NCBI GenBank assembly: GCA_001784435.1
Contig: MFQZ01000010.1
Location: 105,960-169,959, forward strand
Direction: 5' to 3'
DNA: 64,000 bases
DNA from: Candidatus Magasanikbacteria bacterium RIFOXYC2_FULL_42_28
Lineage (GTDB): Bacteria > Patescibacteriota > Patescibacteriia > Magasanikbacterales > GWA2-37-8
The notes beneath the pieces were generated by a model. The model worked only from the letters and a program-made list of their open reading frames with translations. It did no database searches and had not been told where the DNA came from. The first letter of the stretch is position 1, and each line of letters opens with the position of its first letter. A program made the translations under genes and the position numbers. Of the stretch, positions 1,248-56,896 are shown piece after piece.

Positions 1248-2279
1248 ATGTTAGCAGACCTAAAAAAATTAAAAGATGAAGCGCTGACCGCAATAAACGC
1301 GGCCGCGGATGTTTTGAATTTGGAAGAATTGGAAAATAGATTTTTGGGGCGGAAGTCCGGTGAAATTACTAATTTAATGAAAGGGTTGAAAGAATTGGCG
1401 GTAGATGCTAAACGTGAGGCCGGGGCGGTTGCCAATGAGGTCAAAACAGCGGTAGCGGAGGCGTTGGCCACTAAACGCAATGAACTGGCGGGTGTGAGTC
1501 AGTCCGAGGCATTGTCGGCTGAAAAATTGGATATTACCCAATCGTATTTACCACCGGTGGAGCAGGGGCATTATCACCCGAGCACCCTCGTGCAAACTGA
1601 TTTGGAAGATTTGTTTTTGTCCATGGGTTTTGTGGTGTTGGATGGGCCAGAATTGGAAAGTGATTATTATAATTTTACCGCCGTGAATGTTCCACCTGAG
1701 CATCCGGCGCGTGATATGCAAGATACTTTTTATATAAAAAATCATTCGGGCTGGGTGATGCGCACCCACACCTCGCCGGTACAAGTGCGGGCGATGCAAA
1801 AATATGGCGCGCCCCTACGCGGGATTGTGCCGGGAAAATGTTTTCGCAACGAAGCGACCGACGCGCGTCATGAGCACACGTTGTATCAATTGGAGGGAAT
1901 TGTCGTGGACAAAAATATTAATTTTTCACATTTGAAGGGTGTATTGGAAGCGATGGCACGGCATTTGTATGGTGCTAACACGCAGGTCCGTTTGCGACCA
2001 AAATTTTATCCGTTTGTGGAGCCGGGCGTTAATGGCGAAGTTACCTGTTTTTTGTGCGCGGGCCAAGGTTGCCGAGTGTGTAAAAAATCAGGATGGCTCG
2101 AAATTTTAGGCGCCGGTATGATTCACCCGAATGTTTTGCGCGAGGGTGGCATTGACCCCAAAATTTATAGCGGTTTTGCTTTTGGTTGCGGTTTGGATCG
2201 TTTGACAATGTTAAAATATGGCATTGATGAAATTAGGGTTTTAAAAGCCGGGGATTTAAGATTTGTTAATCAATTTTAG
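1248..2279 (+). CDS. pheS: phenylalanine--tRNA ligase alpha subunit
   Basis: FRNEATDARHEHTLYQLEGIVVD and class II aaRS motifs; followed by pheT. Confidence 0.95.
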   Translation: MLADLKKLKDEALTAINAAADVLNLEELENRFLGRKSGEITNLMKGLKELAVDAKREAGAVANEVKTAVAEALATKRNELAGVSQSEALSAEKLDITQSYLPPVEQGHYHPSTLVQTDLEDLFLSMGFVVLDGPELESDYYNFTAVNVPPEHPARDMQDTFYIKNHSGWVMRTHTSPVQVRAMQKYGAPLRGIVPGKCFRNEATDARHEHTLYQLEGIVVDKNINFSHLKGVLEAMARHLYGANTQVRLRPKFYPFVEPGVNGEVTCFLCAGQGCRVCKKSGWLEILGAGMIHPNVLREGGIDPKIYSGFAFGCGLDRLTMLKYGIDEIRVLKAGDLRFVNQF

Positions 2280-2369: not shown

Positions 2370-4826
2370 ATGTTAATTTCCTATAATTGGCTCAAAGAGC
2401 ATTGTGATTTACCGGCCGGGTTAACTCCGGCGGAATTAGGCGATAAATTTAAATTGGCAGTGGTTGAAGTTGAAAAAATTGTGAGCGAAGGTGAGAATTT
2501 GGAAAATATTGTCGTGGGCAAAGTGGTGTCGGCTGAGAAACACCCCAATGCTGATAAATTAAAAGTTTGTAAAGTTGATGCCGGTGGTGAATTGGTTCAG
2601 GTAGTGTGTGGTGGATCCAATGTTGCCGAAGGAATGCTCGTGGCGTTTGCGCCGATCGGTGCGAAAGTGCGCTGGCATGGGGAAGGGGATTTGGTGGAAT
2701 TAACCGAAGCGACTATTCGGGGCGAAAAATCATATGGCATGATTTGCGCTTCTACTGAAATTGGTTTGGGCGAAAAATTCCCGCTGAAAGACGAAAAAGA
2801 AATTTTAGATTTGACTTTTTTGAAATTAAAAGTGGGAACGCATTTGAAAACTGCTCTGAAATTAAACGACGCAGTTTTAGAAATTGACAACAAGTCGCTT
2901 TCGCACCGTCCGGATTTATGGGGGCACTTGGGTTTGGCGCGCGAGGCGGCCGCTTTGTTTAGTCGTCAATTGAAAGAATTGAAATTAGGGAAAATTAAGC
3001 CGGGCAAAAGTGTTTCTCTGTCGGTAAAAGTGGAAGATACTAAATTGTGTCCGCGTTATTTGGCGGTTGCGCTCGCCGGTATAAAAGTAGCGCCGTCGCC
3101 TGATTGGCTGCAGAGCCGATTGTTGACGGTGGGAATTAACCCCATCAATAATATCGTGGATATTACCAATTATGTCATGTTGGATTTGGGGCAACCGATG
3201 CACGCCTTTGACGCTTCGCGTATTGCTGTCATCCCAACGAAAGTCGGGATCTCTGTCCGTCTTGCAAAATCCGGTGAAACCATCGTCGCTTTAGACAAAA
3301 AAGAATACAAATTAACTGAAAATGATTTGGTAATCGCCACTGCCGAGCGTCCGATTGCTATTGCCGGCGTGATGGGCGCTTTGAATAGCGGAGTAACCGA
3401 CGCGACGGAAACTATTATTTTTGAATCAGCTAATTTTAATCCGGTGAGTGTGCGTAAGACCTCCACGCGTTTAAATTTGCGTTCGGACAGCGCGCAACGG
3501 TTTGAAAAATCCTTGGATCCTAATTTGTGCGAAATCGCGTTGCAAAAAGCCGTGGCCATGACTTTGGAAATTTGTCCGGGCGCGTCGGTAGCGAGCAAGG
3601 TTATTGATGAAAAACATTTTTCTCTATTCACCGGACCGCTCTTAATGCCGAAAAATATTTTTGAAAAAAAATTAGGCGTGGTTATTCCGCCCAAAAGAAT
3701 TAAAGAAATTTTAGAAAAATTGGGGTTTGTCGTTACTGAAAAAAAAGACGAATTGTCAGTCAAAATTCCCACTTGGCGCGCGACCAAAGATATTGCCATT
3801 GCCGAAGATATTGTGGAAGAAGTGGGGCGGATTTACGGTTTTAGCAATATTCCCGGCACGTTACCAACATTCCCGATTACTCCGGCTAGTTTAACACCGG
3901 TGCAAAAATTACAGCGCACGGTAAAAGATGTTTTGGTGCGCGAGTTGGGTTATTCGGAAATGTATAATTATTCGTTCGTGAGTGCGGAGCAAATTGTTCG
4001 TTCCGGAGATAACGTGGCAAACTATTTAGAGCTGGACAATCCGATTTCCAAAGAGAAACCATTTTTGCGGAGAAATCTGCTTTTAAATTTAATGGAAAAT
4101 CTTGAAAGAAATATCAATTCGGCTGAAGTAATAAAATTATTTGAAATTGGCAAAATATTTCAACCTGAAGAAGCCGGGCCACGCGCAGACAGCAACGGTG
4201 ATGAATTATTGCCCCGTCAAGATACCTGGTTGGGCGCAGTTAACGTAGAAAAAAAGAATGACACTCCTTTTTGGGAAGCGCGACGAGTCGCCGAGATTAT
4301 CACTCGCGAGCTTGGTGTTACAGTCAAATTTGTGCCAGGAGAAACTCTTTCGATGGCGCCTTATCAACATCCGGGGCGGACTGCTTGGATTTATGCCGGC
4401 GATAGTTTAGTCGGACGAGTGTGGGAGCTGCATCCGAAAGTTGCCGCTAATTTTAATTTTCCTTACCGGGTGGGTGTGTGTGGTTTTAACCTAAATATTT
4501 TGGCCGATAAACAGAGGGAGGCCCGCATTTTTAAACCGTTGTCACTGTATCCAGAAGTAAAACGCGATGTTGCTTTTGTCGTGTATACAAAAATTGTTCA
4601 TGTGGAAGTTGAGAAAGCGCTTGCTGGAATTGATCCGCTTGTGAAAGGCGTAGAATTGTTTGATGTATATACTGGCAAGAATTTGGGCGCAGGCAAAAAA
4701 AGTATGGCCTATCGTTTAACACTTTTAAATTCCGAGCGGACTTTGGAGTCCAAAGAAGTGGATGTGGTGATGGATAAGGCGACAAAAATGTTAGTTGAAA
4801 ATTTTGGGGCGGAGATGCGGGGGTAA
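2370..4826 (+). CDS. pheT: phenylalanine--tRNA ligase beta subunit
   Basis: Starts MLISYNWLKEHCDL; B3/B4, tRNA-binding and FDX-ACB-like regions; upstream ORF extension to 2304 is encoded by a repeat and rejected. Confidence 0.9.
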   Translation: MLISYNWLKEHCDLPAGLTPAELGDKFKLAVVEVEKIVSEGENLENIVVGKVVSAEKHPNADKLKVCKVDAGGELVQVVCGGSNVAEGMLVAFAPIGAKVRWHGEGDLVELTEATIRGEKSYGMICASTEIGLGEKFPLKDEKEILDLTFLKLKVGTHLKTALKLNDAVLEIDNKSLSHRPDLWGHLGLAREAAALFSRQLKELKLGKIKPGKSVSLSVKVEDTKLCPRYLAVALAGIKVAPSPDWLQSRLLTVGINPINNIVDITNYVMLDLGQPMHAFDASRIAVIPTKVGISVRLAKSGETIVALDKKEYKLTENDLVIATAERPIAIAGVMGALNSGVTDATETIIFESANFNPVSVRKTSTRLNLRSDSAQRFEKSLDPNLCEIALQKAVAMTLEICPGASVASKVIDEKHFSLFTGPLLMPKNIFEKKLGVVIPPKRIKEILEKLGFVVTEKKDELSVKIPTWRATKDIAIAEDIVEEVGRIYGFSNIPGTLPTFPITPASLTPVQKLQRTVKDVLVRELGYSEMYNYSFVSAEQIVRSGDNVANYLELDNPISKEKPFLRRNLLLNLMENLERNINSAEVIKLFEIGKIFQPEEAGPRADSNGDELLPRQDTWLGAVNVEKKNDTPFWEARRVAEIITRELGVTVKFVPGETLSMAPYQHPGRTAWIYAGDSLVGRVWELHPKVAANFNFPYRVGVCGFNLNILADKQREARIFKPLSLYPEVKRDVAFVVYTKIVHVEVEKALAGIDPLVKGVELFDVYTGKNLGAGKKSMAYRLTLLNSERTLESKEVDVVMDKATKMLVENFGAEMRG
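3227..3261. repeat. family A repeat (tgtcatcccaacgaaagtcgggatctctgtccgtc) in frame inside pheT
   Basis: Matches intergenic copies at 27772, 30744, 15337; encodes VIPTKVGISVRL within the PheT B3/B4 region. Confidence 0.7.
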
Positions 4827-6958: not shown

Positions 6959-7345
6959 ATGTTAGAAACATCCAAAGACATTTTGTATCTCGTGATTTCT
7001 TTTTGCGTTTTGTGGACAACCGTATTTTTGTGCTGGGTATTTTATTATGTCATGCGTCTACTGCGCAACACCAACCAAATCGTAGAAGAATTTCGTGTGC
7101 GTCTGCAGGCGTTAACCGAAGCGATAAATTATATCCGCGGTAAAGTAGAGCACATGTCCGGACTAATGACTTTAATTACCGACGGCGCGGCAGGACTGGC
7201 CAAAAAATTTGTGGCGCGCAAAGCCGGGGAGTGGGGTCAAGCGGGCGCGGATAAATTTGACGAAGCAGCCAAAGACGCGGTTAGTAAAGCGGTGGCGGCG
7301 ACAGCCAAGGGGATGCGCGGGGCGGTGAAGAAGATGAAAAGGTAA
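6959..7345 (+). CDS. small membrane protein (N-terminal TM helix, Ala/Lys-rich amphipathic C-terminus), function unknown
   Basis: Strong RBS AAAGGAGGAAAAAATATG; hydrophobic segment ILYLVISFCVLWTTVFLCWVFYYV. Confidence 0.5.
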   Translation: MLETSKDILYLVISFCVLWTTVFLCWVFYYVMRLLRNTNQIVEEFRVRLQALTEAINYIRGKVEHMSGLMTLITDGAAGLAKKFVARKAGEWGQAGADKFDEAAKDAVSKAVAATAKGMRGAVKKMKR

Positions 7346-7346
7346 T

Positions 7347-7451
7347 TTCAAAATTCCAATATCCAATTTCCAATCAAATCCAAATGTCCAACCGTTTTGA
7401 TATTTTAATTTTGACATTGATTTGACATTGGAAATTGGATATTTGATATTT
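7347..7451. repeat. family D AT-rich palindromic element (ccaatatccaatttccaatcaaatccaaa ... tttgacattggaaattggatattt)
   Basis: Imperfect inverted repeat; related copies at 39326-39440, 53787-53852, 55826-55925. Confidence 0.7.
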
Positions 7452-7456
7452 ATATA

Positions 7457-14605: not shown

Positions 14606-15733
14606 TTATTCTATTTCCCAATTCGGATCAGCATTAAGAATTCGCCAATCGGTGAATTCTTTTTTTTGCGCTTGGTAATATCCAGCGACGGCGATCATGG
14701 CGGCGTTGTCCATGCAATATTTTAAATTTGGAATAAGTAGTTCATGGCCAATAGATTGCGATTCGTGAGCGAGCGTTTCGCGCAACTTTTCATTGGCCGC
14801 CACGCCACCACCCAAAATTATAGTTTTAGGATTATAAAGTTTGGCGGCTTTTAAAGTTTTGCCTACCAAGACATCAACAATTGCTTGTTCAAAAGACGCG
14901 CAGAAGTCGTTGACACTCGGTTTGTCATTGCGAGGAGTGAAACTACGAAGCAATCCCATGACTGTTGGCCAGAGATTGCCGCGCTCCCTACGGTCGCTCG
15001 CAATGACAGTGCCGGCGAGTTTATTATCGCGCAACCAATACAGAGCCGCTGTTTTTAATCCGGAAAAACTAAACTCCAAATTATCATCTTTTAGCATCGG
15101 CCGTGGAAAATCAATCGCGTCCGTTCGTCCGGTCTTCGCCAACTCCGAAATTTTTGGTCCACCCGGGTATTCTAACTCTAAAAGTTTTGCCACTTTATCA
15201 AAACATTCACCGGCGGCATCATCACGCGTCGCGCCGATTTTTTTGTATTCATTTGCCGAGTTCATTAAAATTAATTCCGTATGCCCACCACTCACAATCA
15301 GTGCGAGCGCCGGATATTCAATTGTCGTCACCGTATTGTCATCCCGATGAAAATCGGGATCTCTGTCCGTCTGTATTTCCACCGAGTGGCTGTGCCCCCA
15401 AATATGATTAACCGCAACAATAGGCACATTCCAAACCATACTCAAAGTCCGCGCCGCCTCTACGCCAACAATTAAACCGGTAATTAGTCCCGGTCCAGCC
15501 GTAACAGCAATCACATCCGGCCGTGGTTGGTTTTTTAAAACCTCTTCAATCAAAGGCACAATCTTCTCCGCGTGCGCTCTACCAGCCAATTCCGGCACCA
15601 CCCCACCATATTTTTTATGCAAATCAATTTGCGATACTGCCGATTCACGAACAACAAAACAGCCCTCGGGAGAACAATCCACAAGGGCCACCGCGGTATC
15701 GTCGCAAGATGATTCAATGCCGAGAATCAACAT
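14606..15733 (-). CDS. tsaD: tRNA N6-adenosine threonylcarbamoyltransferase
   Basis: MLILGIESSCDDTAVALV and the Kae1/YgjD fold; carries two in-frame repeat insertions. Confidence 0.9.
   Translation of the reverse strand: MLILGIESSCDDTAVALVDCSPEGCFVVRESAVSQIDLHKKYGGVVPELAGRAHAEKIVPLIEEVLKNQPRPDVIAVTAGPGLITGLIVGVEAARTLSMVWNVPIVAVNHIWGHSHSVEIQTDRDPDFHRDDNTVTTIEYPALALIVSGGHTELILMNSANEYKKIGATRDDAAGECFDKVAKLLELEYPGGPKISELAKTGRTDAIDFPRPMLKDDNLEFSFSGLKTAALYWLRDNKLAGTVIASDRRERGNLWPTVMGLLRSFTPRNDKPSVNDFCASFEQAIVDVLVGKTLKAAKLYNPKTIILGGGVAANEKLRETLAHESQSIGHELLIPNLKYCMDNAAMIAVAGYYQAQKKEFTDWRILNADPNWEIE
14922..15009. repeat. family B palindromic repeat in frame inside tsaD
   Basis: ttgtcattgcgag...ctcgcaatgaca; encodes about 29 aa (..DRRERGNLWPTVMGLLRSFTPRNDK) on the - strand. 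Confidence 0.7.
15337..15372. repeat. family A repeat in frame inside tsaD
   Basis: ttgtcatcccgatgaaaatcgggatctctgtccgtctg; encodes TDRDPDFHRDDNT on the - strand. Confidence 0.75.
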
Positions 15734-21562: not shown

Positions 21563-22405
21563 TCAATCGGCCAATATATTGGGGTTTTTGGTTGCTTCGG
21601 CTGGTGAGCGAGCATCGGTCAAACCGTATTCCCCAATTTGGGTCCTTGTCAAGGCCTGGCAGTAGGCCCCGGTGCCGAGTTTTTTGCCAATGTCTTCGGC
21701 GAGGGTGCGGATGTAAGTGCCGGCCGAGCAGGTGACTTCTATTGTTAAATTTGGCCAGACGTAGTCCAGAAGTTTGATGTCATAAATTTCAATTGCCGAT
21801 GGTTTGCGTTCCACGGTTTTGCCCACGCGAGCAAGTTCGTATAATTTTTTGCCAGCGATTTTTTTGGCGCTGTACATCGGGGGAACTTGCTTATTTTTGC
21901 CAATGAAAGATTTAATAATTTTTTGTGTTAGTTCTAGTGTCGGTGGAATTGGTGAGAGAATATTGAATATTGGATATTGAATATTAGTGTCCGGTCGTCC
22001 AATTGTCATTCCGACAGAGGCTCGCGCCGACGAGGAATCTCCATCCCGTCCAATTTTCTTTAATATCCAATATTTAATATTTAATATCCAAGACTTTTTT
22101 TGAAAGGGAATGATTGTCCCAGTGCAGTCGCCCGTATCCGAAACAGCGCCAAGCCGTATCGTCGCCACATAAGTTTTTCGTAAATTTTTAAATTCATCCA
22201 ACCGCTTAGTCGCCTCGCGCCCCACGCCCACAATTAACAAACCAGTCGCAAACGGATCCAAAGTGCCAGCATGCCCCACCCGAATATTTTTTGGCGCGCC
22301 GTTATTAATCAAATTTTTACGAATAAACCCAACCACATCAAAACTAGTCCAGTTGATTGGTTTATTGATAAGGAGGAAATTTGTGGGTAATTGTGTTTTG
22401 GTCAT
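21563..22405 (-). CDS. truB: tRNA pseudouridine(55) synthase
   Basis: GHAGTLDPFATGLLIVGVG catalytic motif; about 45 aa in-frame insert from a composite repeat. Confidence 0.9.
   Translation of the reverse strand: MTKTQLPTNFLLINKPINWTSFDVVGFIRKNLINNGAPKNIRVGHAGTLDPFATGLLIVGVGREATKRLDEFKNLRKTYVATIRLGAVSDTGDCTGTIIPFQKKSWILNIKYWILKKIGRDGDSSSARASVGMTIGRPDTNIQYPIFNILSPIPPTLELTQKIIKSFIGKNKQVPPMYSAKKIAGKKLYELARVGKTVERKPSAIEIYDIKLLDYVWPNLTIEVTCSAGTYIRTLAEDIGKKLGTGAYCQALTRTQIGEYGLTDARSPAEATKNPNILAD
21959..22092. repeat. composite MITE-like element inside truB: AT-rich inverted arms (attgaatattggatattgaatatt / aatatccaatatttaatattt) flanking a family A core
   Basis: Core tgtcattccgacagaggctcgcgccgacgaggaatctccatcccgtc; translated in frame as SWILNIKYWILKKIGRDGDSSSARASVGMTIGRPDTNIQYPIFNILSPI. 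Confidence 0.75.
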
Positions 22406-22735: not shown

Positions 22736-22931
22736 AACGCCGCGGTTAACTTCCAAACAAGTAATAAAAATTTTGGAAAATAACGATTTTGTTTTAGATC
22801 ATGTTTTCGGAAGCCACTATGTTTTTTATCGTGCTTCTGATAAAAGGCGAGCGGTGGTACCGTATCATACCAAAAATTTACCGATTGGGACTTTAAAAAG
22901 TATTTTGCGTTCGGCGGAGATTGAGATTTAG
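22728..22931 (+). CDS. hicA: HicA-family toxin
   Basis: MPKTPRLTSKQVIKILENNDFVLDHVFGSHYVF...VVPYHTKNLPIGTLKSILRSAEI matches the HicA consensus. Confidence 0.7.
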   Translation: MPKTPRLTSKQVIKILENNDFVLDHVFGSHYVFYRASDKRRAVVPYHTKNLPIGTLKSILRSAEIEI

Positions 22932-22972
22932 TAATTTTGTCATCTCCGTGAAAACGCGGATCCAGTCGCAGA

Positions 22973-23002
22973 TTGTCATTGCGAGCAAAGCGAAGCAATC
23001 TG
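22973..23002. repeat. family B repeat (ttgtcattgcgagcaaagcgaagcaatctg), preceded by an A-like degenerate copy at 22936-22971
   Basis: Sequence identity to the other B copies. Confidence 0.65.
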
Positions 23003-23080
23003 TACAACAGGCGTAACGTCTGTTTTTTGTTTGCATATTTAGCTCTGCCTCGTAAAGCCATAGCAAAAATGGTGACAGCC

Positions 23081-23124
23081 TGTGGATAACTTATTTGCCA
23101 AAAGCGGTTGGGGGGGGGGTATAC
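23081..23124 (+). promoter_or_regulatory. conserved promoter module copy 1: TGTGGATAA - TTGCCA(-35) - 18 nt spacer ending in G10 - TATACT(-10)
   Basis: Near-identical modules at 44804, 46537, 47787; G-run at 23109-23118. Confidence 0.45.
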
Positions 23125-27771: not shown

Positions 27772-27825
27772 TTGTCATCCCGAGTGAGGACTCCCGACTT
27801 AGTCGGGACGAGGGATCTCTGTCCA
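27772..27825. repeat. family A repeat (ttgtcatcccgagtgaggactcccgacttagtcgggacgagggatctctgtcc)
   Basis: Intergenic copy upstream of trxA. Confidence 0.75.
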
Positions 27826-29277: not shown

Positions 29278-29427
29278 ATCGCAAAATTAATCAAATAAGC
29301 CCTTTCGCCATAAACGACGGGGCTTTTGTTTTATTTGTTTGACGCCATTTTTTAGTGGGTATATAATACTGGACACGTTGTAATGAAAACTGAAGAATAA
29401 AGATTGAAGATTCGCGAATTTAATCCA

Positions 29428-29455
29428 TTAATCTTTAATCTTTAATCTTTAATTT
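29428..29455. repeat. tandem heptamer repeat (taatctt x3-4) in the gdhA 5' UTR
   Basis: ttaatctttaatctttaatctttaatttt. Confidence 0.7.
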
Positions 29456-29463
29456 TCACCCCT

Positions 29464-30775: not shown

Positions 30776-31690
30776 ATGCCCGAACTTCCCGAAGTAGAAA
30801 CAGTTCGCCGTGATTTGGAAAAAGTTTTGGTTGGTAAAAAAATCACGGCAGTAGAAATTTTAGATAAAAAAATTGTCGGCGGTAAACCGGCAGTTTTTGT
30901 GTCGGCTGTAAATGGTAAGAAAATTGTTGGGGTGGAGCGAAGAGGGAAATTATTGGCGTTTAAATTAAGTAGCGGTGAATATTTGTTAGCGCATCTGAAA
31001 ATGACCGGGCAGTTGATTTGTGTTTCATTGTCATTGCGAGCGAAGCGCGGCAATCTCATCGCCGGCGGTCACCAAGTTGGTAAAAACGATTTAACTGTGC
31101 CAAACAAATTCACGCGCGTCATTTTTGCATTTTCCCCTCCTGCCCGAGGAGGGGCGAGGGGTGGTGGGAGCGTTGGTGGCACACTATATTTCAACGACCT
31201 CCGTCGTTTCGGTTATTTAAAAGTTGTATCGGCGGAAGAAAAAGAAACCATATTTAAAAATAATTTTGGTATTGAACCATTGACACCCGATTTTAAATTA
31301 TCAGCTTTTACAAAAATATTTCGAAACCGTAAAACCAATTTAAAAGCGATTTTGATGAATCAAAAATTAATTTCTGGCTTGGGGAATATTTACGTGGACG
31401 AGGCCTGTTTTAACGCTGGACTTTTACCGTGGCGATCGGCTAAGTCACTAAAACCGCCAGAAATTAAAAAATTATTTTCTTGTATTCAAAAAGTAATCGC
31501 CGTGGCCATTAAAAATCGCGGCACCACTTTTAAAGATTTTCGCGATGGCGCGGGTGGGCGCGGGGCGCATTATAATTTTCTTAATGTGTATGGGCGCAAA
31601 GGTGAAAAATGCCGGAAGTGTAAAAATTTTATAAAAAAGACCAAACACGCCGGGCGGGGGACGCATTTTTGTCCGAAATGTCAGCGGTAA
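30776..31690 (+). CDS. mutM: formamidopyrimidine-DNA glycosylase
   Basis: MPELPEVETVRR N terminus, H2TH region and C-terminal zinc finger CRKCKN..C..C; two in-frame repeat insertions. Confidence 0.85.
   Translation: MPELPEVETVRRDLEKVLVGKKITAVEILDKKIVGGKPAVFVSAVNGKKIVGVERRGKLLAFKLSSGEYLLAHLKMTGQLICVSLSLRAKRGNLIAGGHQVGKNDLTVPNKFTRVIFAFSPPARGGARGGGSVGGTLYFNDLRRFGYLKVVSAEEKETIFKNNFGIEPLTPDFKLSAFTKIFRNRKTNLKAILMNQKLISGLGNIYVDEACFNAGLLPWRSAKSLKPPEIKKLFSCIQKVIAVAIKNRGTTFKDFRDGAGGRGAHYNFLNVYGRKGEKCRKCKNFIKKTKHAGRGTHFCPKCQR
31028..31056. repeat. family B repeat in frame inside mutM
   Basis: ttgtcattgcgagcgaagcgcggcaatctc encodes CVSLSLRAKRGNLIAG. Confidence 0.75.
31131..31172. repeat. family C repeat in frame inside mutM
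   Basis: ttttcccctcctgcccgaggaggggcgaggggtggtgggagcg encodes FSPPARGGARGGGSVG. Confidence 0.75.
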
Positions 31691-31752: not shown

Positions 31753-34700
31753 ATGTCAAAATACGATCATAAAAAAATAGAAGCAAAATGGAAGAAAAAT
31801 TGGGAAAAGTCCGGGATATATAAAACCGGCGACCCATCCTTCGCTAAGGATTCGGCGGGCAAGCCCAAGTATTATGTCTTGGACATGTTTCCGTATCCAT
31901 CAGGCGCGGGTTTGCATGTCGGCCACCCCAAGGGTTTTATCGCCACCGACATTGTCGCGCGTTTAAAAATGATGCAAGGGTACAATGTTTTGCACCCGAT
32001 GGGTTGGGACGCGTTTGGGCTACCGGCGGAAAATTATGCTTTGAAAAATAAAGTTCATCCGGCGGACGCGACTGCCGAAAATATTAAAGTTTTTAAAAAA
32101 CAATTAGGCCTTTTGGGTTTTACTTATGATTGGAGCAGGGAAGTGAATACGACTGATCCAGAATATTATAAATGGACCCAGTGGATATTTTTACAATTAT
32201 TTAAAAAGGGTCTGGCGTTTGAATCTTACGAACCGATTAATTGGTGCCCGTCGTGCAAAACCGGTTTGGCTAATGAAGATTTGGAAGATGGGAAATGTGA
32301 GCGCTGTGGGAGCGTGGTAGAACAAAAACCTTTGCGCCAATGGGTATTGAAAATTACCGATTATGCCGAGCGTTTGCTCAATGATATTGAATTATTAAAA
32401 GAATGGCCCGAGCCGATTAAAGAAATGCAGAGAAATTGGATTGGACGCAAGGAGGGTATAAATATCGTATATCAAATTGAGGGGTCGGATAAAAAAGTTA
32501 TTTGTTTCACCACTCGTCCTGACACAAATTTCGGTGCTACTTTTGTTGTGGTTGGCCCGGAACATTCTTTGATTTCATCAATAACAACATCGGAGTATAA
32601 AGAAGATGTAGAAAAATATGTATCCGCCGCTAAAAATAAAACAGAATTAGATAGAATTGCGGAAGGTAGAGAGAAAAGTGGTGTGTTTACCGGTTCGTAT
32701 TGCATAAATAATTTGACTGATTATAAAATGCCGATTTGGGTGGCTGATTATGTGTTAGGCAATGTAGGAACTGGCATGGTAGTAGGTGTGCCGGGACATG
32801 ATAAACGCGATTTTGAATTTGCCAATAAATTTGGTATTGAAATAAAAAGAGTGGTGGTGGCCGGTGATGGTGATACGTCGCCTATTACTAAAATAGAACA
32901 GGTGCAGGAACATGAAGGGGAAATGATAAATTCTGGATTTTTGGATGGTTTAGATATTCACGATGCTACACGTAAGATAATGGATCGTTTAGAAGAAAAA
33001 GGATGGGGTAAGCGAGTGATTAATTATAAATTACGCGATTGGGTTTTTTCGCGCCAACGTTATTGGGGGGAGCCGATACCGCTCGTGCATTGTGAAGTGT
33101 GCAAAAATAAAAAATATAATTACATTATTTTACACGGATATACCGGTACGGCCGATCAAAATGGACCGGGTAGAGGCGATTCTAATAATTGGCGCCCGTG
33201 GGTAAAAGTTAAATTAGAAGAACGTGGCAATAAAGTTTTTTGTCCTAATCTTCCAAACACTAATGAACCAAATATAGATGAACAAGTGCAATATGTTATA
33301 GACAATGTTAATTTTGAGATAGACGAAAACACGGTTATAGTTGGGCATAGTTTGGGTGGAGTAGTGATATATAAACTGTTGGAAAAATTAAATAAGAAAG
33401 TTGGCAAAGTATTGTTAGTTGATCCGGTAGTAAGTCCCGAGTTTCCGGACAAAGAAAGACTAAATGTAAAAAAGAGTTGTGACTGGAAATTTAATTTTGA
33501 GAAGATAAAAAAATTAAGTGATGATTTTGTTGTTTTGGGTGCGTCTGATTTTGCGACTATCTTTGAAAAAGATTTAAGATTTGTGGCCGATAAACTGGAA
33601 GCAAATTTAGTTTTAGCTAAACCAGCGGAAGGGCATTTTACAGCTGAAGAAGAGCCGGTCGTATTAAATTTATTAAATAATACTGGCTGGTACCCAGTCC
33701 CAGAAAAAGACCTGCCACTTGAATTGCCAAAAGTAAAAAATTATGAACCGACTGGAACCGGGGAATCGCCACTCGCGGGAATTGATAAGTGGGTGAATAC
33801 ATTATGTCCTCATTGTGGCGGGCCGGCGAAACGTGAAACCAATACCATGCCACAGTGGGCGGGGAGTTGTTGGTATTATTTGCGCTATGAAGATCCGCAT
33901 AACAGTAAAGCACTCGTGGATAAAGATAAAGAAAAATATTGGTCGCCGGTGGATTTTTATGTTGGTGGCGCCGAACACGCCACGCGCCATTTAATTTACG
34001 CGCGGTTTTGGCATAAGTTTTTATTTGATATTGGGGCGGTTAGCAATATTGAGCCGTTTACCAAATTACAAAGTGTGGGTTTGATTCTGGCCGAAGACGG
34101 GCGCAAGATGAGTAAGCGTTGGAATAATGTAATTAATCCCGATGATGTTGTGGCTGAATTTGGCGCGGACGCGATGCGTTTGTATGAAATGTTTATGGGG
34201 CCATTTGATCAGGCTTGCGCTTGGAGTACGAAAGGTGTGATTGGGTGTCGGCGGTTTTTGGAAAAGGTTTGGGTGCTGGGCGAGAAGATTAAAGATGAAA
34301 GATTGAAGATTAATGGTGATAATAATAAAAATATTGAGATATTATTAAACCAAACAATCAAAAAAGTTACCGAAGACATTCCAGCGATGCGATTTAACAC
34401 GGCCATCGCGCAACTGATGATTTTTGCGAATGAGGCTTCACAATCTTCTATCTTAAATCTTCAATCTTTCGCTTCATTCCTCCAACTTCTCGCTCCATTT
34501 GCTCCGCATATGACAGAAGAGCTGTGGGCAAATTTAGGCAACAAAGAAAGTATTTTTAAATCCGCGTGGCCGAAATTTGACCCCACCAAAATTCAACATT
34601 CCGAAATTACCGTCGTCGTTCAAGTAAACGGTAAGCTGCGCGATGAAATAATTGTGCCAGTTGATATTGCCGAAGCCGATGCCAAAGCGCGGGCGCTTTC

Positions 34701-34788
34701 AACAGAAAAAATTAAAAAATGGTTAGATGGCAAAGAGCCGAAGAAAGTGATTTATGTGAAAGGGAAGCTCGTGAGTATAGTGGTGTAG
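31753..34788 (+). CDS. leuS: leucine--tRNA ligase with an embedded alpha/beta serine-hydrolase domain
   Basis: HIGH region (HVGHPKG), CP1 editing motifs TTRPDT and GTGMVVGVPGHDKRDFEFA, KMSKR; start at ATG 31753 (MSKYDHKKIEAKW); about 190 aa longer than a typical bacterial LeuS. Confidence 0.9.
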   Translation: MSKYDHKKIEAKWKKNWEKSGIYKTGDPSFAKDSAGKPKYYVLDMFPYPSGAGLHVGHPKGFIATDIVARLKMMQGYNVLHPMGWDAFGLPAENYALKNKVHPADATAENIKVFKKQLGLLGFTYDWSREVNTTDPEYYKWTQWIFLQLFKKGLAFESYEPINWCPSCKTGLANEDLEDGKCERCGSVVEQKPLRQWVLKITDYAERLLNDIELLKEWPEPIKEMQRNWIGRKEGINIVYQIEGSDKKVICFTTRPDTNFGATFVVVGPEHSLISSITTSEYKEDVEKYVSAAKNKTELDRIAEGREKSGVFTGSYCINNLTDYKMPIWVADYVLGNVGTGMVVGVPGHDKRDFEFANKFGIEIKRVVVAGDGDTSPITKIEQVQEHEGEMINSGFLDGLDIHDATRKIMDRLEEKGWGKRVINYKLRDWVFSRQRYWGEPIPLVHCEVCKNKKYNYIILHGYTGTADQNGPGRGDSNNWRPWVKVKLEERGNKVFCPNLPNTNEPNIDEQVQYVIDNVNFEIDENTVIVGHSLGGVVIYKLLEKLNKKVGKVLLVDPVVSPEFPDKERLNVKKSCDWKFNFEKIKKLSDDFVVLGASDFATIFEKDLRFVADKLEANLVLAKPAEGHFTAEEEPVVLNLLNNTGWYPVPEKDLPLELPKVKNYEPTGTGESPLAGIDKWVNTLCPHCGGPAKRETNTMPQWAGSCWYYLRYEDPHNSKALVDKDKEKYWSPVDFYVGGAEHATRHLIYARFWHKFLFDIGAVSNIEPFTKLQSVGLILAEDGRKMSKRWNNVINPDDVVAEFGADAMRLYEMFMGPFDQACAWSTKGVIGCRRFLEKVWVLGEKIKDERLKINGDNNKNIEILLNQTIKKVTEDIPAMRFNTAIAQLMIFANEASQSSILNLQSFASFLQLLAPFAPHMTEELWANLGNKESIFKSAWPKFDPTKIQHSEITVVVQVNGKLRDEIIVPVDIAEADAKARALSTEKIKKWLDGKEPKKVIYVKGKLVSIVV
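33105..33690 (+). other. YdeN/RBBP9-like alpha/beta serine hydrolase domain inserted within LeuS
   Basis: IILHGYTG...NWRPWVK...VIVGHSLGG (nucleophile elbow)...LGASDF...AEGHF (Ser-Asp-His candidates); sits between PIPLVHCEVC and the C-terminal CPHCGG...WYYLRY region. Confidence 0.6.
34441..34475. repeat. short tandem-repeat-like insert (caatcttctatcttaaatcttcaatcttt) in frame in the leuS 3' region
   Basis: Same aatcttcaatctta motif as the trxA upstream tandem repeat; encodes SQSSILNLQSF. Confidence 0.6.
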
Positions 34789-39310: not shown

Positions 39311-39325
39311 AATATTTATTAATAA

Positions 39326-39440
39326 TTTCAAAATCCAAATTTCCAATTTCCAAATTAATGTCTAAGCTAAAATAACAAATTTGACATTTAGATTTTGGAT
39401 TTTGTTTGACATTGGATATTGGATATTTGACATTTAAATT
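39326..39440. repeat. family D AT-rich palindromic element
   Basis: caaaatccaaatttccaatttccaaa ... tttgacattggatattggatatttgacattt; produces spurious MEIWIL ORFs. Confidence 0.7.
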
Positions 39441-42642: not shown

Positions 42643-44612
<1,970 letters not shown>

Positions 44613-44665
44613 AAAATGTAAAATGTAAATATCAAAAATCAAAATTAGCGAGTTTTCCGTTCGTT

Positions 44666-44708
44666 GTCTCCCCCTGCCCGAGGGGGAGAATAAGAGGGGG
44701 TGGGAGCG
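44666..44708. repeat. family C repeat downstream of groEL
   Basis: ccccctgcccgagggggagaataagagggggtgggagcgg. Confidence 0.7.
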
Positions 44709-44730
44709 GATTCTTTATTCGCACAACCAC

Positions 44731-44764
44731 AAAAATAATCGACCGCTCGGTCGGTTATTTTTTT
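44731..44764 (+). terminator. conserved terminator module T (aaaaataatcgaccgctcggtcggttatttttt), copy 1
   Basis: Perfect hairpin plus T-run; identical copies at 46498 and 47715; degenerate copy at 50138. Confidence 0.7.
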
Positions 44765-44803
44765 GTTTGCCTTGCAAGGCCATAGCCCGCAGGGCGACGG
44801 CTT

Positions 44804-44849
44804 GTGGATAACTTTATTTGCCAAATACGGTCGGGGGGGGGGGTATACT
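44804..44849 (+). promoter_or_regulatory. conserved promoter module copy 2: TGTGGATAA - TTGCCA - 20 nt spacer ending in G11 - TATACT
   Basis: G-run at 44833-44843. Confidence 0.45.
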
Positions 44850-44884
44850 TAATTACGAGAGAATTTATTATTAATTATAAAATT

Positions 44885-45814
44885 ATGCCAGAAATAAAAG
44901 CGGGTTACATTCCGCAGGAGTCACGTGGGTCGTCTGAATTAGAACAACAGGCAATTGTGGACAGCGCGACAGATTTGATATTAAAAACATTGAATAGGCA
45001 CCTTGATAAAGATCATGCGCCAAAAATACCTGATCAAGAGAAAATAAAGAAAGCATTAATTTTGTTAATGGCGGGAAAAAATGTACATAATGAAATAACG
45101 ATTCCAACAACTACAGAAAGCAGAGGACGTTTTGATGGCGCGAACTCTGCCAAATGGTATCCAAATGTATTGGTGGCTCTACATGAAGCAGTAGGTGACA
45201 AACCAAGACGATTGACAATTCAATTCAATCATCAGTCCGACGCAGAAGAGTCGGAGGAAGTCTGTGCTAGACATATTAGTGGTGCCCGGCCGATGGATAA
45301 GCCAATAATACAATCAATAGTTATTCCACCATCATATTCCAAAGAGGAAAAGACAATAATGACTAGTCGACGCAAGTCAGCTGTTAGTTTAGAAGATAGT
45401 GGTGCTGTGCCCGTCCAAGATGTCGGAGCGGATAAGCGGCGCTTAGAAGTAACTCGTTCGCAAGTTGAAAAGGCGCGTGGGGAGATGTTTAAAGATATTG
45501 GTACAAGCGAAGATGGTTCAAGGGGTTATTTTTCAGAGTATATTGGACCTGATCGTGATAGTATGAGTAAAGGCAAAATATTGTCTAAGCGAGACAGACA
45601 ATATGTCGCCAAATTGTCAGAAATTAGCGGAAAATTACTAGAGTTAGATAAAGTAATTGATAGCAAGTCGAGTGCTAGCGCGGTGAAGAAGGCGGAAGCT
45701 AAACATTTGAAATTAAGGCAAGAGGCCCGGATTATTATCGATAATTATGATCAAGAAGATCGCCATGCCTTCGAAAATGGTATGGCTGGGGTTCGGCCCA
45801 CAGTCGAATATTAA
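44885..45814 (+). CDS. hypothetical protein (cargo gene behind module 2)
   Basis: ATG 44885 (MPEIKAGY) about 35 nt after the -10 box; hydrophilic, no motif. Confidence 0.45.
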   Translation: MPEIKAGYIPQESRGSSELEQQAIVDSATDLILKTLNRHLDKDHAPKIPDQEKIKKALILLMAGKNVHNEITIPTTTESRGRFDGANSAKWYPNVLVALHEAVGDKPRRLTIQFNHQSDAEESEEVCARHISGARPMDKPIIQSIVIPPSYSKEEKTIMTSRRKSAVSLEDSGAVPVQDVGADKRRLEVTRSQVEKARGEMFKDIGTSEDGSRGYFSEYIGPDRDSMSKGKILSKRDRQYVAKLSEISGKLLELDKVIDSKSSASAVKKAEAKHLKLRQEARIIIDNYDQEDRHAFENGMAGVRPTVEY

Positions 45815-46006
45815 AACAGTATAATTGATTTATAAAAACGGATTTAAATATCCGTTTTTTAGTTAAAAAATGTATGAGTTGTATTAGCTATTTCGTGATT
45901 AGGGATTTTAATCTTTTGATTTTATTGGGTTCTTGACAAAAAGTAAGAAATATGATACAATAAGAATGTAGTAAAGTAATACTTTCTTACTCATCAATTT
46001 TATTTT

Positions 46007-46243
46007 ATGGAAACTACTGTTCAAAAAACCACCACCAAAGGCCAAATCACTTTGCCCAAACACTGGCGCGATCAGTTTAAAACCAATCATTTCGCCATGA
46101 TGCCGCAGGATGATTTTTTGATTATTCGGCCGTTGTCGTTGGATGACGAGGATAATTATATTAGTGTGTTTGACGCCAAACGCGACAATCGGGGCAAAGG
46201 TATGCCAGCTAAAAAGTTATTGAAAATTTTAAAGTCCGTTTAA
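46007..46243 (+). CDS. AbrB/MazE/SpoVT-type antitoxin
   Basis: TTKGQITLPKHWRDQF looped-hinge motif; precedes a RelE toxin with 1-nt spacing. Confidence 0.6.
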   Translation: METTVQKTTTKGQITLPKHWRDQFKTNHFAMMPQDDFLIIRPLSLDDEDNYISVFDAKRDNRGKGMPAKKLLKILKSV

Positions 46244-46244
46244 A

Positions 46245-46487
46245 ATGGACAAGATTAAAAAATTATTTAAGAAATTATCCGCAACCGACCGAATTGCTTT
46301 GGCAGCAGCGTTGGAATTATTAGTCGCGAATAACTTGGAGGGGTTGGATATAAAAAAGTTGGCCGGTGGTAATTTATGGCGTTTGCGCGTTGGTAATTTT
46401 CGGATTATTTTTAAACGCCATAACGCTGAAAATATTGTTTACGAAATTCGTCGGCGTGATGAGAATACTTATAAAGGATTAGTTTGA
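46245..46487 (+). CDS. relE: RelE/ParE-family toxin
   Basis: GNLWRLRVGNFRIIFKRHNAENIVYEIRRRDENTY matches the ..YRLRVGDYRIIY.....I.IL.IGHR consensus. Confidence 0.65.
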   Translation: MDKIKKLFKKLSATDRIALAAALELLVANNLEGLDIKKLAGGNLWRLRVGNFRIIFKRHNAENIVYEIRRRDENTYKGLV

Positions 46488-46497
46488 TTGTGATAAT

Positions 46498-46531
46498 CAA
46501 AAATAATCGACCGCTCGGTCGGTTATTTTTT
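46498..46531 (+). terminator. terminator module T, copy 2
   Basis: aaaaataatcgaccgctcggtcggttattttttt. Confidence 0.7.
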
Positions 46532-46536
46532 TATCT

Positions 46537-46580
46537 GTGCATAACTTATTTGACAAATATCGTCGGGGGGGGGGTATGCT
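46537..46580 (+). promoter_or_regulatory. conserved promoter module copy 3: TGTGCATAA - TTGACA - 19 nt spacer ending in G10 - TATGCT
   Basis: G-run at 46565-46574. Confidence 0.45.
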
Positions 46581-46628
46581 ATAAGCAAATTATGAATTGT
46601 TAAAAATTTGTTAAATATAAAAAATAAT

Positions 46629-47243
46629 ATGGAAAAATTCAATCCATCAAATCCGAAGTATAAAAAAGTTGCAGATTTACCACGTGCGCGGAGGGAAAAA
46701 TTTGTTGATGTTGAAACCGGAGGATTTGTGCGAAAAAGCGCAGATGAAATTTTTTTTGAAGCCGAAAAAGAAGCAGTTCGTAATGAGGATGTAGTAGTTC
46801 ATGAGTATGGGCGTCGTCTCCCCAGAGAGAATAATCCACAAGACATTTTACAAGAGCAAGCCGTTGATTTGGAAAACTACAGGAAAGCAATATTAACCAA
46901 TCCCAAAAAGTATTTTTGGCTTAGCGACGACAAAAGGGAGCAATTTTTTAGGGGGGATGATTTTTTGGATGATAAAGAAGTTATGATGCAAGTTCTGAAG
47001 CATGTTAGAGACGCTGGTATTATTAGAAAGTTATCACCTCGATTGCAACAAGACAGGGAGGTCATTTTGGCGGCACTTCGTGGCCCTCTTAGCAATGGAG
47101 ATAATTTTTATAGTTATAGTGGAGGGATTCATCATGAATTTAAAGCGGCTCAATTAGTTCCACAAGATATGTTGGATGATCCTGAAATTAAAAAAGCCAT
47201 TGATGAATATGATACACCTGATGACCTGCCCGGATCAGCATAG
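46629..47243 (+). CDS. hypothetical protein (cargo gene behind module 3)
   Basis: ATG 46629 (MEKFNPSNPKYKK); hydrophilic. Confidence 0.45.
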   Translation: MEKFNPSNPKYKKVADLPRARREKFVDVETGGFVRKSADEIFFEAEKEAVRNEDVVVHEYGRRLPRENNPQDILQEQAVDLENYRKAILTNPKKYFWLSDDKREQFFRGDDFLDDKEVMMQVLKHVRDAGIIRKLSPRLQQDREVILAALRGPLSNGDNFYSYSGGIHHEFKAAQLVPQDMLDDPEIKKAIDEYDTPDDLPGSA

Positions 47244-47309
47244 ATTATAAAATTAAACACCGACAGGTAGCTGGTTTTTTATAATCTGTAAAAGCACTAC
47301 GGTAGACTG

Positions 47310-47459
47310 ATGATGATACCGCAGGATGATTTTTTGATTATCAGGCCGTTGTCTTTGGACGATGAAGATAATCATATTAGCGTTTTTGATGCCAAGCGCG
47401 ATAATCGCGGTCAAGGCATTCCGGCTAAAAAATTATTGAAAATTTTAAAGTCCGTTTAA
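47310..47459 (+). pseudogene. 5'-truncated duplicate of the AbrB-type antitoxin (lacks the DNA-binding N terminus)
   Basis: MMIPQDDFLIIRPLSLDDEDNHISVFDAKRDNRGQGIPAKKLLKILKSV aligns with the C-terminal 49 aa of 46007-46243. Confidence 0.6.
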
Positions 47460-47460
47460 A

Positions 47461-47703: not shown

Positions 47704-47714
47704 TTGTGATAATC

Positions 47715-47748
47715 AAAAATAATCGACCGCTCGGTCGGTTATTTTTTT
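47715..47748 (+). terminator. terminator module T, copy 3
   Basis: aaaaataatcgaccgctcggtcggttattttttt. Confidence 0.7.
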
Positions 47749-47786
47749 GTCTGCTTGCAGTGAATCGGCCGTAGGCCTGGTTCACT

Positions 47787-47830
47787 GTGCATAACTTATT
47801 TGCCAAACACGGTCGGGGGGGGGGTATACT
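47787..47830 (+). promoter_or_regulatory. conserved promoter module copy 4: TGTGCATAA - TTGCCA - 19 nt spacer ending in G10 - TATACT
   Basis: G-run at 47815-47824. Confidence 0.45.
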
Positions 47831-50079: not shown

Positions 50080-50124
50080 TGTCATTCCGAGCGAGGCCAA
50101 AGGCCGACGAGGAATCTCTGTCTA
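50080..50124. repeat. family A repeat (tgtcattccgagcgaggccaaaggccgacgaggaatctctgtcta)
   Basis: Follows the groEL-tail duplicate, like the repeats after the real groEL. Confidence 0.7.
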
Positions 50125-55939: not shown

Positions 55940-56896
55940 ATGCACTTCTTTACCCCCAAAGCCATTCAAAACCTTTGCCAACAATATGGCCTAAAACCAT
56001 CGCGCGATTATGGTCAGAATTATTTGTTGTCGTTAGAGCCGATTGAGGCGATGCTTAAAGCGGCCGAGATTAAAAAGACCGATACCATCGTGGAAATTGG
56101 CCCTGGTTTTGGCGCGCTTACATGTGGCTTGGCTGATGAGGCCGGTAAAGTGATTGCGTTTGAAATTGAGAAAAAAATTGAAAAATATTGGCAGGAAAAA
56201 ACCAAAGAATATCCGAACGTGGAAATTGTGTGGGGGAATGTATTGAGAATGTTTTGTCATTTCGAGCGAGGCCTCAAGGCCGACGAGAAATCTCCATCCG
56301 ATGCGATTGACGATAATGGAGATCCCCCACATTCGTTCGGGATGACAGTGGGCGAGCCGTATAAAGTCGTCGCTAACATTCCTTATCAGATTACTTCCCC
56401 CTTAATTAAATTATTTTTAGAAGATATAAAAAACAAACCTGAGTTGATGGTTCTTATGGTGCAAAAAGAAGTGGCCGAGCGCATTTGCGCCAAGCCCGGT
56501 GATATGTCGGTGCTTGCGATTGCAGTACAATATTTTGCGACGCCGGAAATAATTATTCATGTCCCTCGTCATTTTTTTTATCCCATTCCGGAAGTTGATT
56601 CGGCGGTGATTAAAATTACTCTCAAAAAATTTGATAAAAATCAAGAAGAAAATACTAAACAATTTTTTAAATTAGTCAAAACCGGATTTTCCAGTCGTCG
56701 TAAAATTCTTGTCAAAAATTTATTACCACTGGTCGGGGGTGGGTCGGGGCTTAAAAAATTACAAGAAATTTGGGAGAAATTGGGTTACTCACGCACCATT
56801 CGAGCGCAGGAATTAAGCGTTACTGACTGGATAAAATTGGCGCAAGAGTTGGCGCAGAGTTATCCACATACAAAAAAAGATGAAGATGTGGTATAA
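55940..56896 (+). CDS. rsmA: 16S rRNA (adenine1518/1519-N6)-dimethyltransferase
   Basis: GQNYLL, VEIGPGFGALT and NIPYQITSP motifs; about 26 aa in-frame repeat insert; start ATG 55940. Confidence 0.9.
   Translation: MHFFTPKAIQNLCQQYGLKPSRDYGQNYLLSLEPIEAMLKAAEIKKTDTIVEIGPGFGALTCGLADEAGKVIAFEIEKKIEKYWQEKTKEYPNVEIVWGNVLRMFCHFERGLKADEKSPSDAIDDNGDPPHSFGMTVGEPYKVVANIPYQITSPLIKLFLEDIKNKPELMVLMVQKEVAERICAKPGDMSVLAIAVQYFATPEIIIHVPRHFFYPIPEVDSAVIKITLKKFDKNQEENTKQFFKLVKTGFSSRRKILVKNLLPLVGGGSGLKKLQEIWEKLGYSRTIRAQELSVTDWIKLAQELAQSYPHTKKDEDVV
56254..56330. repeat. family A repeat in frame inside rsmA
   Basis: ttgtcatttcgagcgaggcctcaaggccgacgagaaatctccatccg... encodes FCHFERGLKADEKSPSDAIDDNGDPP. Confidence 0.7.

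Follow-up and report, generated by a model that had tools for sequence, protein, structure and literature searches.

Short palindromic repeats are known from many bacterial genomes, where some of them lie within genes. The CGTC-tagged repetitive extragenic palindromes (REPs) of Di Nocera et al. 2013 often carry their tag in the form TGTC (CCTC is a further variant), have stems that open with A-T followed by T-A, and end in a short tail (PMC3733652). Members of this group include Neisseria dRS3 and the Rickettsia palindromic elements (RPEs) RPE-4 and RPE-6 of R. conorii, and intragenic REPs have been recorded in truB of three proteobacteria, with R. conorii truB carrying RPE-1 (PMC3733652). A second relevant system is the 28-nt NTS of Neisseria (CGTCATTCCCGCG..GCGGGAATCYRG; Chenal et al. 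2025, PMC11893778). NTS-like hairpins, termed SRM, flank small GIY-YIG genes (ssnA) in various phyla, and Ssn proteins, which are members of cd10448, cleave single-stranded DNA beside the hairpin (PMC11893778). Copies inside coding sequence and bacteria of the candidate phyla radiation (CPR) are not discussed in that study (PMC11893778), and our literature search returned no CPR-specific description of such repeats, which, given incomplete coverage, is weak evidence of novelty. Here we analyze a 64-kb stretch of Candidatus Magasanikbacteria bacterium RIFOXYC2_FULL_42_28 (contig MFQZ01000010.1; hereafter the window), in which truB, the gene for tRNA pseudouridine-55 synthase, contains a 138-nt palindromic insert. 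We propose that a nested pair of hairpin repeats probably entered a permissive loop on the TruB surface and is carried as a translated passenger. Intragenic REP/RPE-like insertion is an already known class and truB an already recorded host; the host here is a CPR bacterium from groundwater.

The truB gene (21563..22405, minus strand) is an intact open reading frame (ORF) of 280 codons and is the only long ORF to cross the insert, which it reads without interruption as SWILNIKYWILKKIGRDGDSSSARASVGMTIGRPDTNIQYPIFNIL. Pfam identifies TruB_N in its product (6e-45), broken into two stretches, as well as TruB_C_2, and a search of PDB chains returns bacterial TruBs as the best relatives (7e-37). Across our alignment of homologs (A1), the catalytic-motif aspartate D50 (in GTLDP) is invariant and the remainder of the gene outside the insert is fully conserved. 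In the alignment to T. maritima TruB, residues 100 and 159 of the window protein correspond to residues 88 and 98, which leaves about 49 residues extra. Among the 115 nearest TruB homologs that have both anchor motifs, the loop from SDTGDxTG to PPMYSA measures 29-35 amino acids in 66, and the 78 amino acids of the window TruB make it the longest of all. Subtracting the conserved flanks from this anchor-to-anchor loop gives an insert of codons S105-L150 (21956..22093, minus strand; about 46 residues relative to insert-free orthologs). An initial annotation had placed an element of about 134 bp at 21959-22092, translated in frame within the loop that follows the catalytic core. Our boundaries agree with it to within a few bases, the segment is palindromic repeat DNA that is an insertion relative to orthologs, the ORF runs through it intact, and the alignments to T. 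maritima TruB and to the orthologs place it in that same loop. The E. coli TruB landmarks named for this position (EERPV and TFSAEQL) are consistent with our alignment coordinates and with the E. coli sequence.

The insert is open only in the frame that is used, an outcome seen in 3% of shuffles, and it folds into a hairpin more stable than that of shuffled sequences (z = -2.25 as RNA and -3.07 as DNA). The DNA of truB is 100% identical in three assemblies, the window and two MEGAHIT contigs from other samples. These contigs are independent, were built by another assembler and have partly different gene neighborhoods and upstream genes; because the same DNA recurs beside partly different neighbors, mis-assembly is excluded. 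A Logan contig encodes the identical TruB protein, and the window TruB is also 100% identical to P0001 of our homolog set, from a Candidatus Magasanikbacteria metagenome-assembled genome. The predicted translation of the insert-bearing truB includes the peptides IGRDGDSSSAR and ASVGMTIGRPDTNIQYPIFNILSPIPPTLELTQK. In an AlphaFold model computed with alignment A1, the mean predicted local distance difference test score (pLDDT) is 86, with both flanks of the insert at or above 85 and the insert itself at 41-68. A helix is predicted at residues 106-119 (pLDDT about 67), and residues 124-145 score below 50. The model superposes on TruB structures (1r3e: root-mean-square deviation 1.9 Å, template modeling score 0.71). 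We read the insert as a poorly ordered surface excursion from a TruB fold that the model retains. The enzyme most likely works as usual, although we infer both the translation of the insert and its neutrality for TruB function. Two further features of the gene and its setting may be recorded here. All CPR TruB homologs in our set (P0001-P0120) are 216-310 amino acids long and, like the window TruB, have no C-terminal PUA domain, which is found in E. coli and T. maritima TruB. An RNase Y gene lies directly downstream of truB.

The anatomy of the insert is that of one hairpin inside another. The outer hairpin is built from 7-nt units. Arm 1 (21958..21985) holds four tandem units (GAATATT; Tandem Repeats Finder period 7, 4.0 copies) and encodes NIQYPIFNI on the truB strand, and arm 2 (22059..22091) holds four tandem units (TTTAATA, 22059-22087) plus TCCAA (period 7, 4.1 copies) and encodes WILNIKYWILK. 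An inverted-repeat search recovers the AT-rich arms at 21959-21986 and 22061-22091 (27 nt, 85% complementary), much as they had been described before; folded as RNA or as DNA, they form a stem of about 20 bp. Seven other Magasanikbacteria TruBs (P0016, P0019, P0029, P0035, P0056, P0057 and P0107; about 57% identical to the window TruB) have the arm peptides at the same position, in the form ILDIKYWIL(N/K)(L/I)FS.NIQY..., with the core absent. For five of them we analyzed the DNA (L003 and L135-L138) and find the same hairpin at the same codon and in the same frame. The consensus outer stem spans 25 bp, and 96% of its cells are paired, versus 35-42% when the partner columns are slid. On a neighbor-joining tree (no bootstrap), this arm-only clade lies far from the window clade (P0001-P0004), and many lineages without an insert separate the two.

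The sister TruB P0002 is 65% identical to the window TruB by BLASTP and 68% over alignment A1. Its segment FLKKI...NLHSLIFNLFS can be aligned, codon for codon, with the peptides of the arms, and the core has no counterpart there. The hairpin potential of this segment is lost (minimum free energy -2.8 kcal/mol), and its units read AATCTTC, resembling the sister genome's own intergenic hairpin (L001:1414-1483). A relative that carries the segment without the palindrome, which the initial annotation had regarded as evidence against an insertion, therefore exists for the arms, but not for the core. Hairpins of the same kind as the arms are also found between genes of the window. One AT-rich 7-nt-unit hairpin (7343..7455) shares TTGGATATT with the truB arms and starts at the upstream gene's stop codon, and a second (39316..39439) is likewise related to the arms. 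In total, TTGGATATT occurs 11 times in the window versus 1.5 expected, including at 7358, 7435, 39412 and 39419, and a 20-mer from the truB arms matches 39408-39427 with 3 mismatches, where the expected total of such matches is 0.06. In contigs of the 7-nt-unit clade, no further TTGGATATT hairpins were found near truB in the 3-7 kb that were covered. As a separate observation on this class, AT-rich 7-nt-unit hairpins of 70-120 nt lie at 7343-7455, 29384-29458, 39316-39439, 53782-53878, 54458-54576 and 55819-55937, beginning at or a few bases from the stop codons of co-directional genes. Some of their right halves contain TTGACA-like hexamers, and these gene-end hairpins may be terminators, promoters or both.

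The inner element (22004..22046, plus strand, antisense to truB) is of a different type. It consists of a TGTC tag, an AT-initiated interrupted hairpin (GTCATTCCGACAGAGGCTCGCGCCGACGAGGAATCTC) and a CATCC tail, and encodes DGDSSSARASVGMT on the truB strand. Read on the plus strand, this core is T GTCAT TCCGACAGAGGCTCGCGCCGACGAGGA ATCTC CATCC (22004-22046), a GC-rich hairpin of 37-42 nt. A perfect 9-nt direct repeat (CGTCCAATT) encloses it, with copy 1 (21996..22004) abutting its 5' end and copy 2 (22047..22055) its 3' end. This repeat flanks the core alone; there is no target-site duplication at the outer arms, whose flanks (GGTGAGAG and GACTTTTT) have no duplication in common. An exact 9-mer repeat at any one given spacing occurs at about 2.8e-5 per window position, and chance is an unlikely source of it even allowing for the choice of boundaries. 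Deleting the element together with one repeat removes 51 nt, or 17 codons, keeps the frame and leaves SWILNIKYWILKKIGRPDTNIQYPIFNIL, a plain hairpin with a 22-nt loop. The junction sequence predicted for a core-less allele is GAAAATTGGACGACCGGACAC.

The core had been assigned to a repeat family of the window (family A), and our scan bears this out, finding near-identical copies at 50081 and 56256. A scan for GTCAT, a stem and ATCTC returns at least 11 family-A copies in the window, and a T precedes GTCAT in all 11 scanned copies. The closest window relatives of the truB core are at 50081-50118, 56256-56294 and 27774-27819, and shorter relatives have the form GTCATCCCGATGAAAATCGGGATCTCTGTC. The closest intergenic sister copy (GTCATTCCGAGCGAGGCCAAAGGCCGACGAGGAATCTC; 50081..50118, plus strand) lies downstream of a groEL-like gene end and is matched by an ortholog in L100, a syntenic contig. 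The copy within ksgA/rsmA (56256..56294, plus strand) has the CATCC tail of the truB core, and a shorter family-A hairpin in inverted orientation is found at 56319-56346. All three closest window relatives, as well as 86 metagenome stretches from groundwater, gut and other sources, represent the core family without arms. Seven groundwater contigs carry a 37-nt GTCATTCCGAGCGAGGCTCGCGCCGACGAGGAATCTC that has the same length as the truB copy and differs from it by 2 nt (blastn 93-95% identity), and leuS of the sister genome contains GTCATCCCGAGCGAGGCTCGCGCCGACGAGGGATCTCcatcccg (L139:1893-1929), whose loop and CATCCCG tail are those of the truB copy. The core itself is found once in the window at up to 3 mismatches, and Rfam gives no match at the insert, whether at gathering thresholds over the whole window or at E up to 10 over 21800-22250. 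A cluster of different tagged hairpins lies nearby at 22930-23060, just upstream of a hicAB-like pair beside truB; it includes one at 22938 and a GTCATTGCGAGC..GCAATCT copy (22972-23001).

Family A is found within a number of other genes. In the window, copies lie in frame in pheT (3228-3253), in tsaD (14972-15007 and 15338-15363; domain of 322 residues versus 262 profile positions), in fpg/mutM (31030-31057; 147 residues versus 116 profile positions) and in ksgA (the two copies given above; Pfam RrnaAD of 285 residues versus 258 profile positions). A further copy (55743-55801), which itself has another insert in its loop, makes up the C-terminal tail of a DUF4015 glycosyl hydrolase. About half of the family-A copies located in the 64 kb fall within conserved genes. 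Translated family-A repeats would account for many odd low-complexity peptides (VIPSEA..EESL, CHSE.., ..RND) and for length outliers in CPR proteins. A candidate second arms-plus-core composite in leuS (34285-34323 / 34442-34468) was rejected, as the intervening sequence is ordinary conserved leucyl-tRNA synthetase (LeuRS).

The TruB loop itself is a recurrent host. Of the 115 nearest homologs, 49 have an enlarged loop with some repeat. These are many unrelated hairpin repeats that are scattered over the neighbor-joining tree, either with peptides such as VIPSEVEESL, VIPAQAGIQ, CHCE..YEAI and ..RFSRND (repeats in either orientation) or as other hairpins. In seven examples the folding energy of the loop DNA is -13 to -46 kcal/mol, versus about 0 to -3 for insert-free loops. 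In the syntenic relatives L084 and L109, a head-to-head family-A pair in sense orientation occupies the same truB loop, and both also have the 37-mer in frame in leuS. One TruB loop has thus been colonized repeatedly across the lineage, mainly, we propose, because insertions there are tolerated. In the one proteobacterial entry compared, S. maltophilia truB, the REP falls at residues 10-16, outside the insert loop. A second insertion hot spot of Magasanikbacteria TruBs is found in alignment A1 at columns 80-130 (after IRK, about residue 30; about 22300-22320 in the window), and its peptides are of the CHPEFISGSL type that is typical of translated hairpin repeats; the window TruB has no insert there.

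Based on comparison with other TruBs, we propose that an AT-rich inverted 7-nt-array hairpin, of the same kind as those at gene ends in this genome, would first have occupied the loop that follows the strand ending at residue 100 and precedes the helix that starts near residue 157. The anatomy of the insert suggests that a 42-nt TGTC-tagged hairpin would then have entered the apical loop antisense to truB and left the 9-nt direct repeat; the order of the two events is read from the nesting. Because whole codons would have been added without stops in both events, truB survived. The protein would keep the TruB fold and its catalytic aspartate, and the 46 protruding residues would form a weakly predicted helix and, after it, a low-confidence and probably disordered stretch.

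We also find a candidate partner for family A. In the sister genome RIFOXYD2_FULL_41_14, a 99-aa GIY-YIG gene (L139:2501-2800) lies between leuS and comEC and is bracketed by inverted family-A hairpins, one at 2458-2485 (+), 16 nt upstream, and one at 2811-2837 (-), 11 nt downstream. In a second example, contig L100, the GIY-YIG gene (2228-2527) has the same bracketing by family-A hairpins at 2186-2213 (+) and 2537-2564 (-). This contig is syntenic with 44-56 kb of the window (about 74% identity); its sister copy of the 50081 element lies 1.8 kb from the flanked gene, at the orthologous end of groEL. In L096, a subfamily hairpin lies 16 nt past a GIY-YIG gene. The domain was identified by running Pfam directly on the L100 and L096 proteins and by a precomputed PF01541 hit for L139. 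The proteins are 50-56% identical to one another and have homologs in many Patescibacteria; in family searches they give a sub-threshold NCBIfam match to a group I intron endonuclease model and a weak PDB match to UPF0213. Given that the gene is flanked by inverted family-A copies, as in the published NTS-ssnA-NTS arrangement, we propose that the hairpins may spread or persist by means of the nuclease and its action on single-stranded DNA; mobilization of family A by an Ssn-like enzyme is speculative. The flanked gene ties the intragenic copies to the Ssn nuclease/hairpin system and suggests a testable route of origin for such repeats. The position beside comEC, a DNA-uptake channel gene, recalls the role of Ssn in Neisseria natural transformation.

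A number of results weigh against a nested pair carried as a translated passenger. When the window is compared with the 7-nt-unit clade, identity is 77-83% in the arms (70-87% at third codon positions), versus 58-61% in the rest of truB (33-40% at third positions). Identical amino acids share their codon in 67-93% of cases in the arms and in 34-42% elsewhere in truB, an excess with Fisher p values from 0.057 to 1.5e-5 in comparisons that are not independent. Such conservation at synonymous sites is unexpected for a purely neutral passenger. For the core, flank duplication as a property of family A shows no excess over re-paired flanks in 62 copies, and no mechanism known for repeats of this type therefore accounts for the 9-nt repeat. 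An empty-site allele was not found; a metagenome scan with a 26-mer across the 3' junction of the core also missed the occupied allele and is therefore uninformative, the organism being absent from that collection. A scan of genome contigs for TruB relatives did not return the genome of the window either. The truB core does not match the SRM pattern HGTCWYN(0-2)YYVSBRHN(0-5)WNVSBRGN(0-2)RNCYNB, differing at a B position and in loop length, and the only strict match in the window is at 22938. Lastly, a motif search and tblastn found no GIY-YIG gene in the 64-kb window, and the leuS-comEC junction (34719-34788), where the sister genome has its GIY-YIG gene, is empty in the window.

The behavior of the arms raises the question of what maintains them. 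Over the whole gene L003 is closest to L135 (87%), yet its arms group with those of L137 and L138 (90-91%). Changes in the arms are concerted and the same in every unit (ATATCCA versus ATATTCA; AATATTC versus AATCTTC). The hairpin is retained in all six genes, and one-sided changes yield G-U or U-G pairs on the sense strand. Taken together, the arm conservation, the incongruent subtypes and the concerted changes point to exchange with other copies, re-insertion or nucleotide-level selection. It is conceivable, though we consider it unlikely, that the outer hairpin is no mere passenger and instead a nucleic-acid element selected, or repeatedly re-installed, at one exact truB codon in distant Magasanikbacteria; it could then act in the mRNA, as a sense-strand hairpin, or in the DNA, as a protein-binding site. 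If this were true, hairpin repeats would have a genuine integration hot spot in the TruB loop, and CPR bacteria, with their tiny genomes, would be using translated hairpin DNA linked to Ssn-type nucleases to remodel core enzymes on a large scale. The same arm conservation and same-codon excess, the retained hairpin with its G-U and U-G sense-strand pairs and the AlphaFold helix at 106-119 would also suit a co-opted insert or outer hairpin, acting as an mRNA hairpin that affects truB translation or decay or as an extra protein element (such as an amphipathic helix for RNA binding or chaperoning). We regard such co-option as quite unlikely. Covariation in the outer hairpin of the six sequences is not above that of shuffles (437 of 500 score at least as high), the sister genome has lost the hairpin, the loops of other lineages hold unrelated repeats or nothing, and the pLDDT of the insert is low. 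Moreover, the incongruence of arm subtypes with the gene tree, as in L003, fits exchange or re-insertion better than a stable function.

The initial annotation had interpreted the locus as a single composite miniature inverted-repeat transposable element (MITE), in which the arms are terminal inverted repeats and the core is cargo of one transposition event. The inverted arms do bracket the core and the whole unit folds as one long hairpin, but the two parts occur separately, the arms alone in seven other TruBs and the core family without arms elsewhere in the window and in metagenomes. No second composite is present in the 64 kb of genome searched or in a metagenome scan with an arm-core junction 26-mer. 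There is no duplication around the arms, which are 7-nt tandem arrays and not transposon terminal inverted repeats, the 9-nt repeat flanks the core alone, and the sister genome has arm-like sequence with the core absent. A single insertion event of this type is therefore improbable. It is more improbable still that the insert is not translated as written. Translational bypass of hairpin elements has precedents in T4 gene 60 and yeast mitochondria, and the identical 9-nt repeats with GGA codons, 51 nt apart around a structured core, could allow a gene-60-like ribosome hop between the ATT-GGA-CG repeats; however, no stop codon or frameshift makes a bypass necessary. As for splicing, no Rfam intron or other RNA family is found even at E = 10, a self-splicing intron would need more than 138 nt, and the peptide has neither intein motifs nor intein-like residues at its junctions. 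Also against these readings, a decaying pseudogene among them, stand the full conservation of the rest of the gene and the recovery of the same protein from several samples. Finally, repeat-rich AT-rich hairpins are prone to assembler errors, but a repeat-induced mis-join or binning artifact in truB has a negligible probability given the identical DNA in the window and two MEGAHIT contigs, the same protein in a Logan contig and the preserved frame. A nested pair of repeats carried as a translated passenger remains the reading that we prefer.

The window has other features that are apart from this insert. LeuRS (31756-34788, plus strand) contains a Ser_hydrolase/alpha-beta-hydrolase domain after its editing domain (about residues 457-631, with a GHSLGG motif), and the LeuRS of the sister genome contains NUDIX plus Ser_hydrolase. 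A single ORF of at least 2135 codons with a signal-peptide-like start (57595-63999, plus strand) runs off the end of the window. A motif composed of TTATTTGCCAAA..GG and a run of ten G is found at 23091-23119, 44814-44842, 46546-46574 and 47796-47824. Several duplicated modules of 200-300 nt with a conserved terminator-like hairpin (CAAAAATAATCGACCGCTCGGTCGGTTATTTTTTT) lie at 44340-50177, and these modules and the TTATTTGCCAAA motif copies lie around multiple groEL-end-like segments.

How does the truB insert compare with described elements? By its architecture, read from sequence, the inner element would belong with the CGTC/TGTC-tagged REPs and the Ssn-associated hairpins. The truB core shares with the former an unpaired TGTC tag (22004-22007) and a stem that starts A-T, T-A (AT TCC...GGA AT in the truB core, AT CCCGA...TCGGG AT in short copies). 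Like these REPs, family A has many copies, some of them intragenic, and forms head-to-head dimers (inverted pairs 52611/52670 and 56256/56319). Whereas the described stems are 8-9 bp with loops of 4-5 nt, in the 37-nt truB core an outer stem of 5 bp is followed by an internal loop and a distal GGC/GCC stem; the short window copies, with a 7-bp stem and a 6-nt loop, are close but not identical. The unpaired tail is conserved in family A as CTC followed by TGTC or CATCC, where the REP consensus is CCA.

The Rickettsia RPEs offer the closest parallel for translation, being short palindromic repeats that lie in frame and stop-free in housekeeping genes, are translated and are compatible with the fold of the host protein (PMC3733652; PMC10969869). 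In-frame, stop-free copies are likewise found here in truB, pheT, tsaD, fpg and ksgA. The differences are that the host belongs to the Patescibacteria/CPR and not to the Alphaproteobacteria, and that a 42-nt element nested in an unrelated hairpin contrasts with an RPE-1 of about 150 bp; family A is linked to the RPEs only by way of PMC3733652, which counts RPE-4 and RPE-6 among the CGTC REPs. Translated palindromic repeats in essential genes are a textbook oddity of Rickettsia, and the window shows the same in a CPR bacterium. With NTS and SRM, family A shares a GTCAT head, a hairpin and an ATCTC-type tail within 20-50 nt, and the gene for a single-domain GIY-YIG protein of about 99 aa is bracketed in relatives; copies flank such an ssnA-like gene in L139 and L100, but not in the window. 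REP/REPIN systems with their RAYT enzymes are similar in that orientation-tagged hairpin repeats, often in inverted pairs, flank a linked single-copy enzyme gene, and differ in having a GTAG tag and a Y1 transposase where we find TGTC and GIY-YIG. MITEs such as Correia, ERIC and RUP are also small, non-autonomous, hairpin-capable and sometimes intragenic. They are defined, however, by terminal inverted repeats that match a parent insertion sequence and by a target-site duplication around the whole unit, and neither was found for the 138-nt unit.

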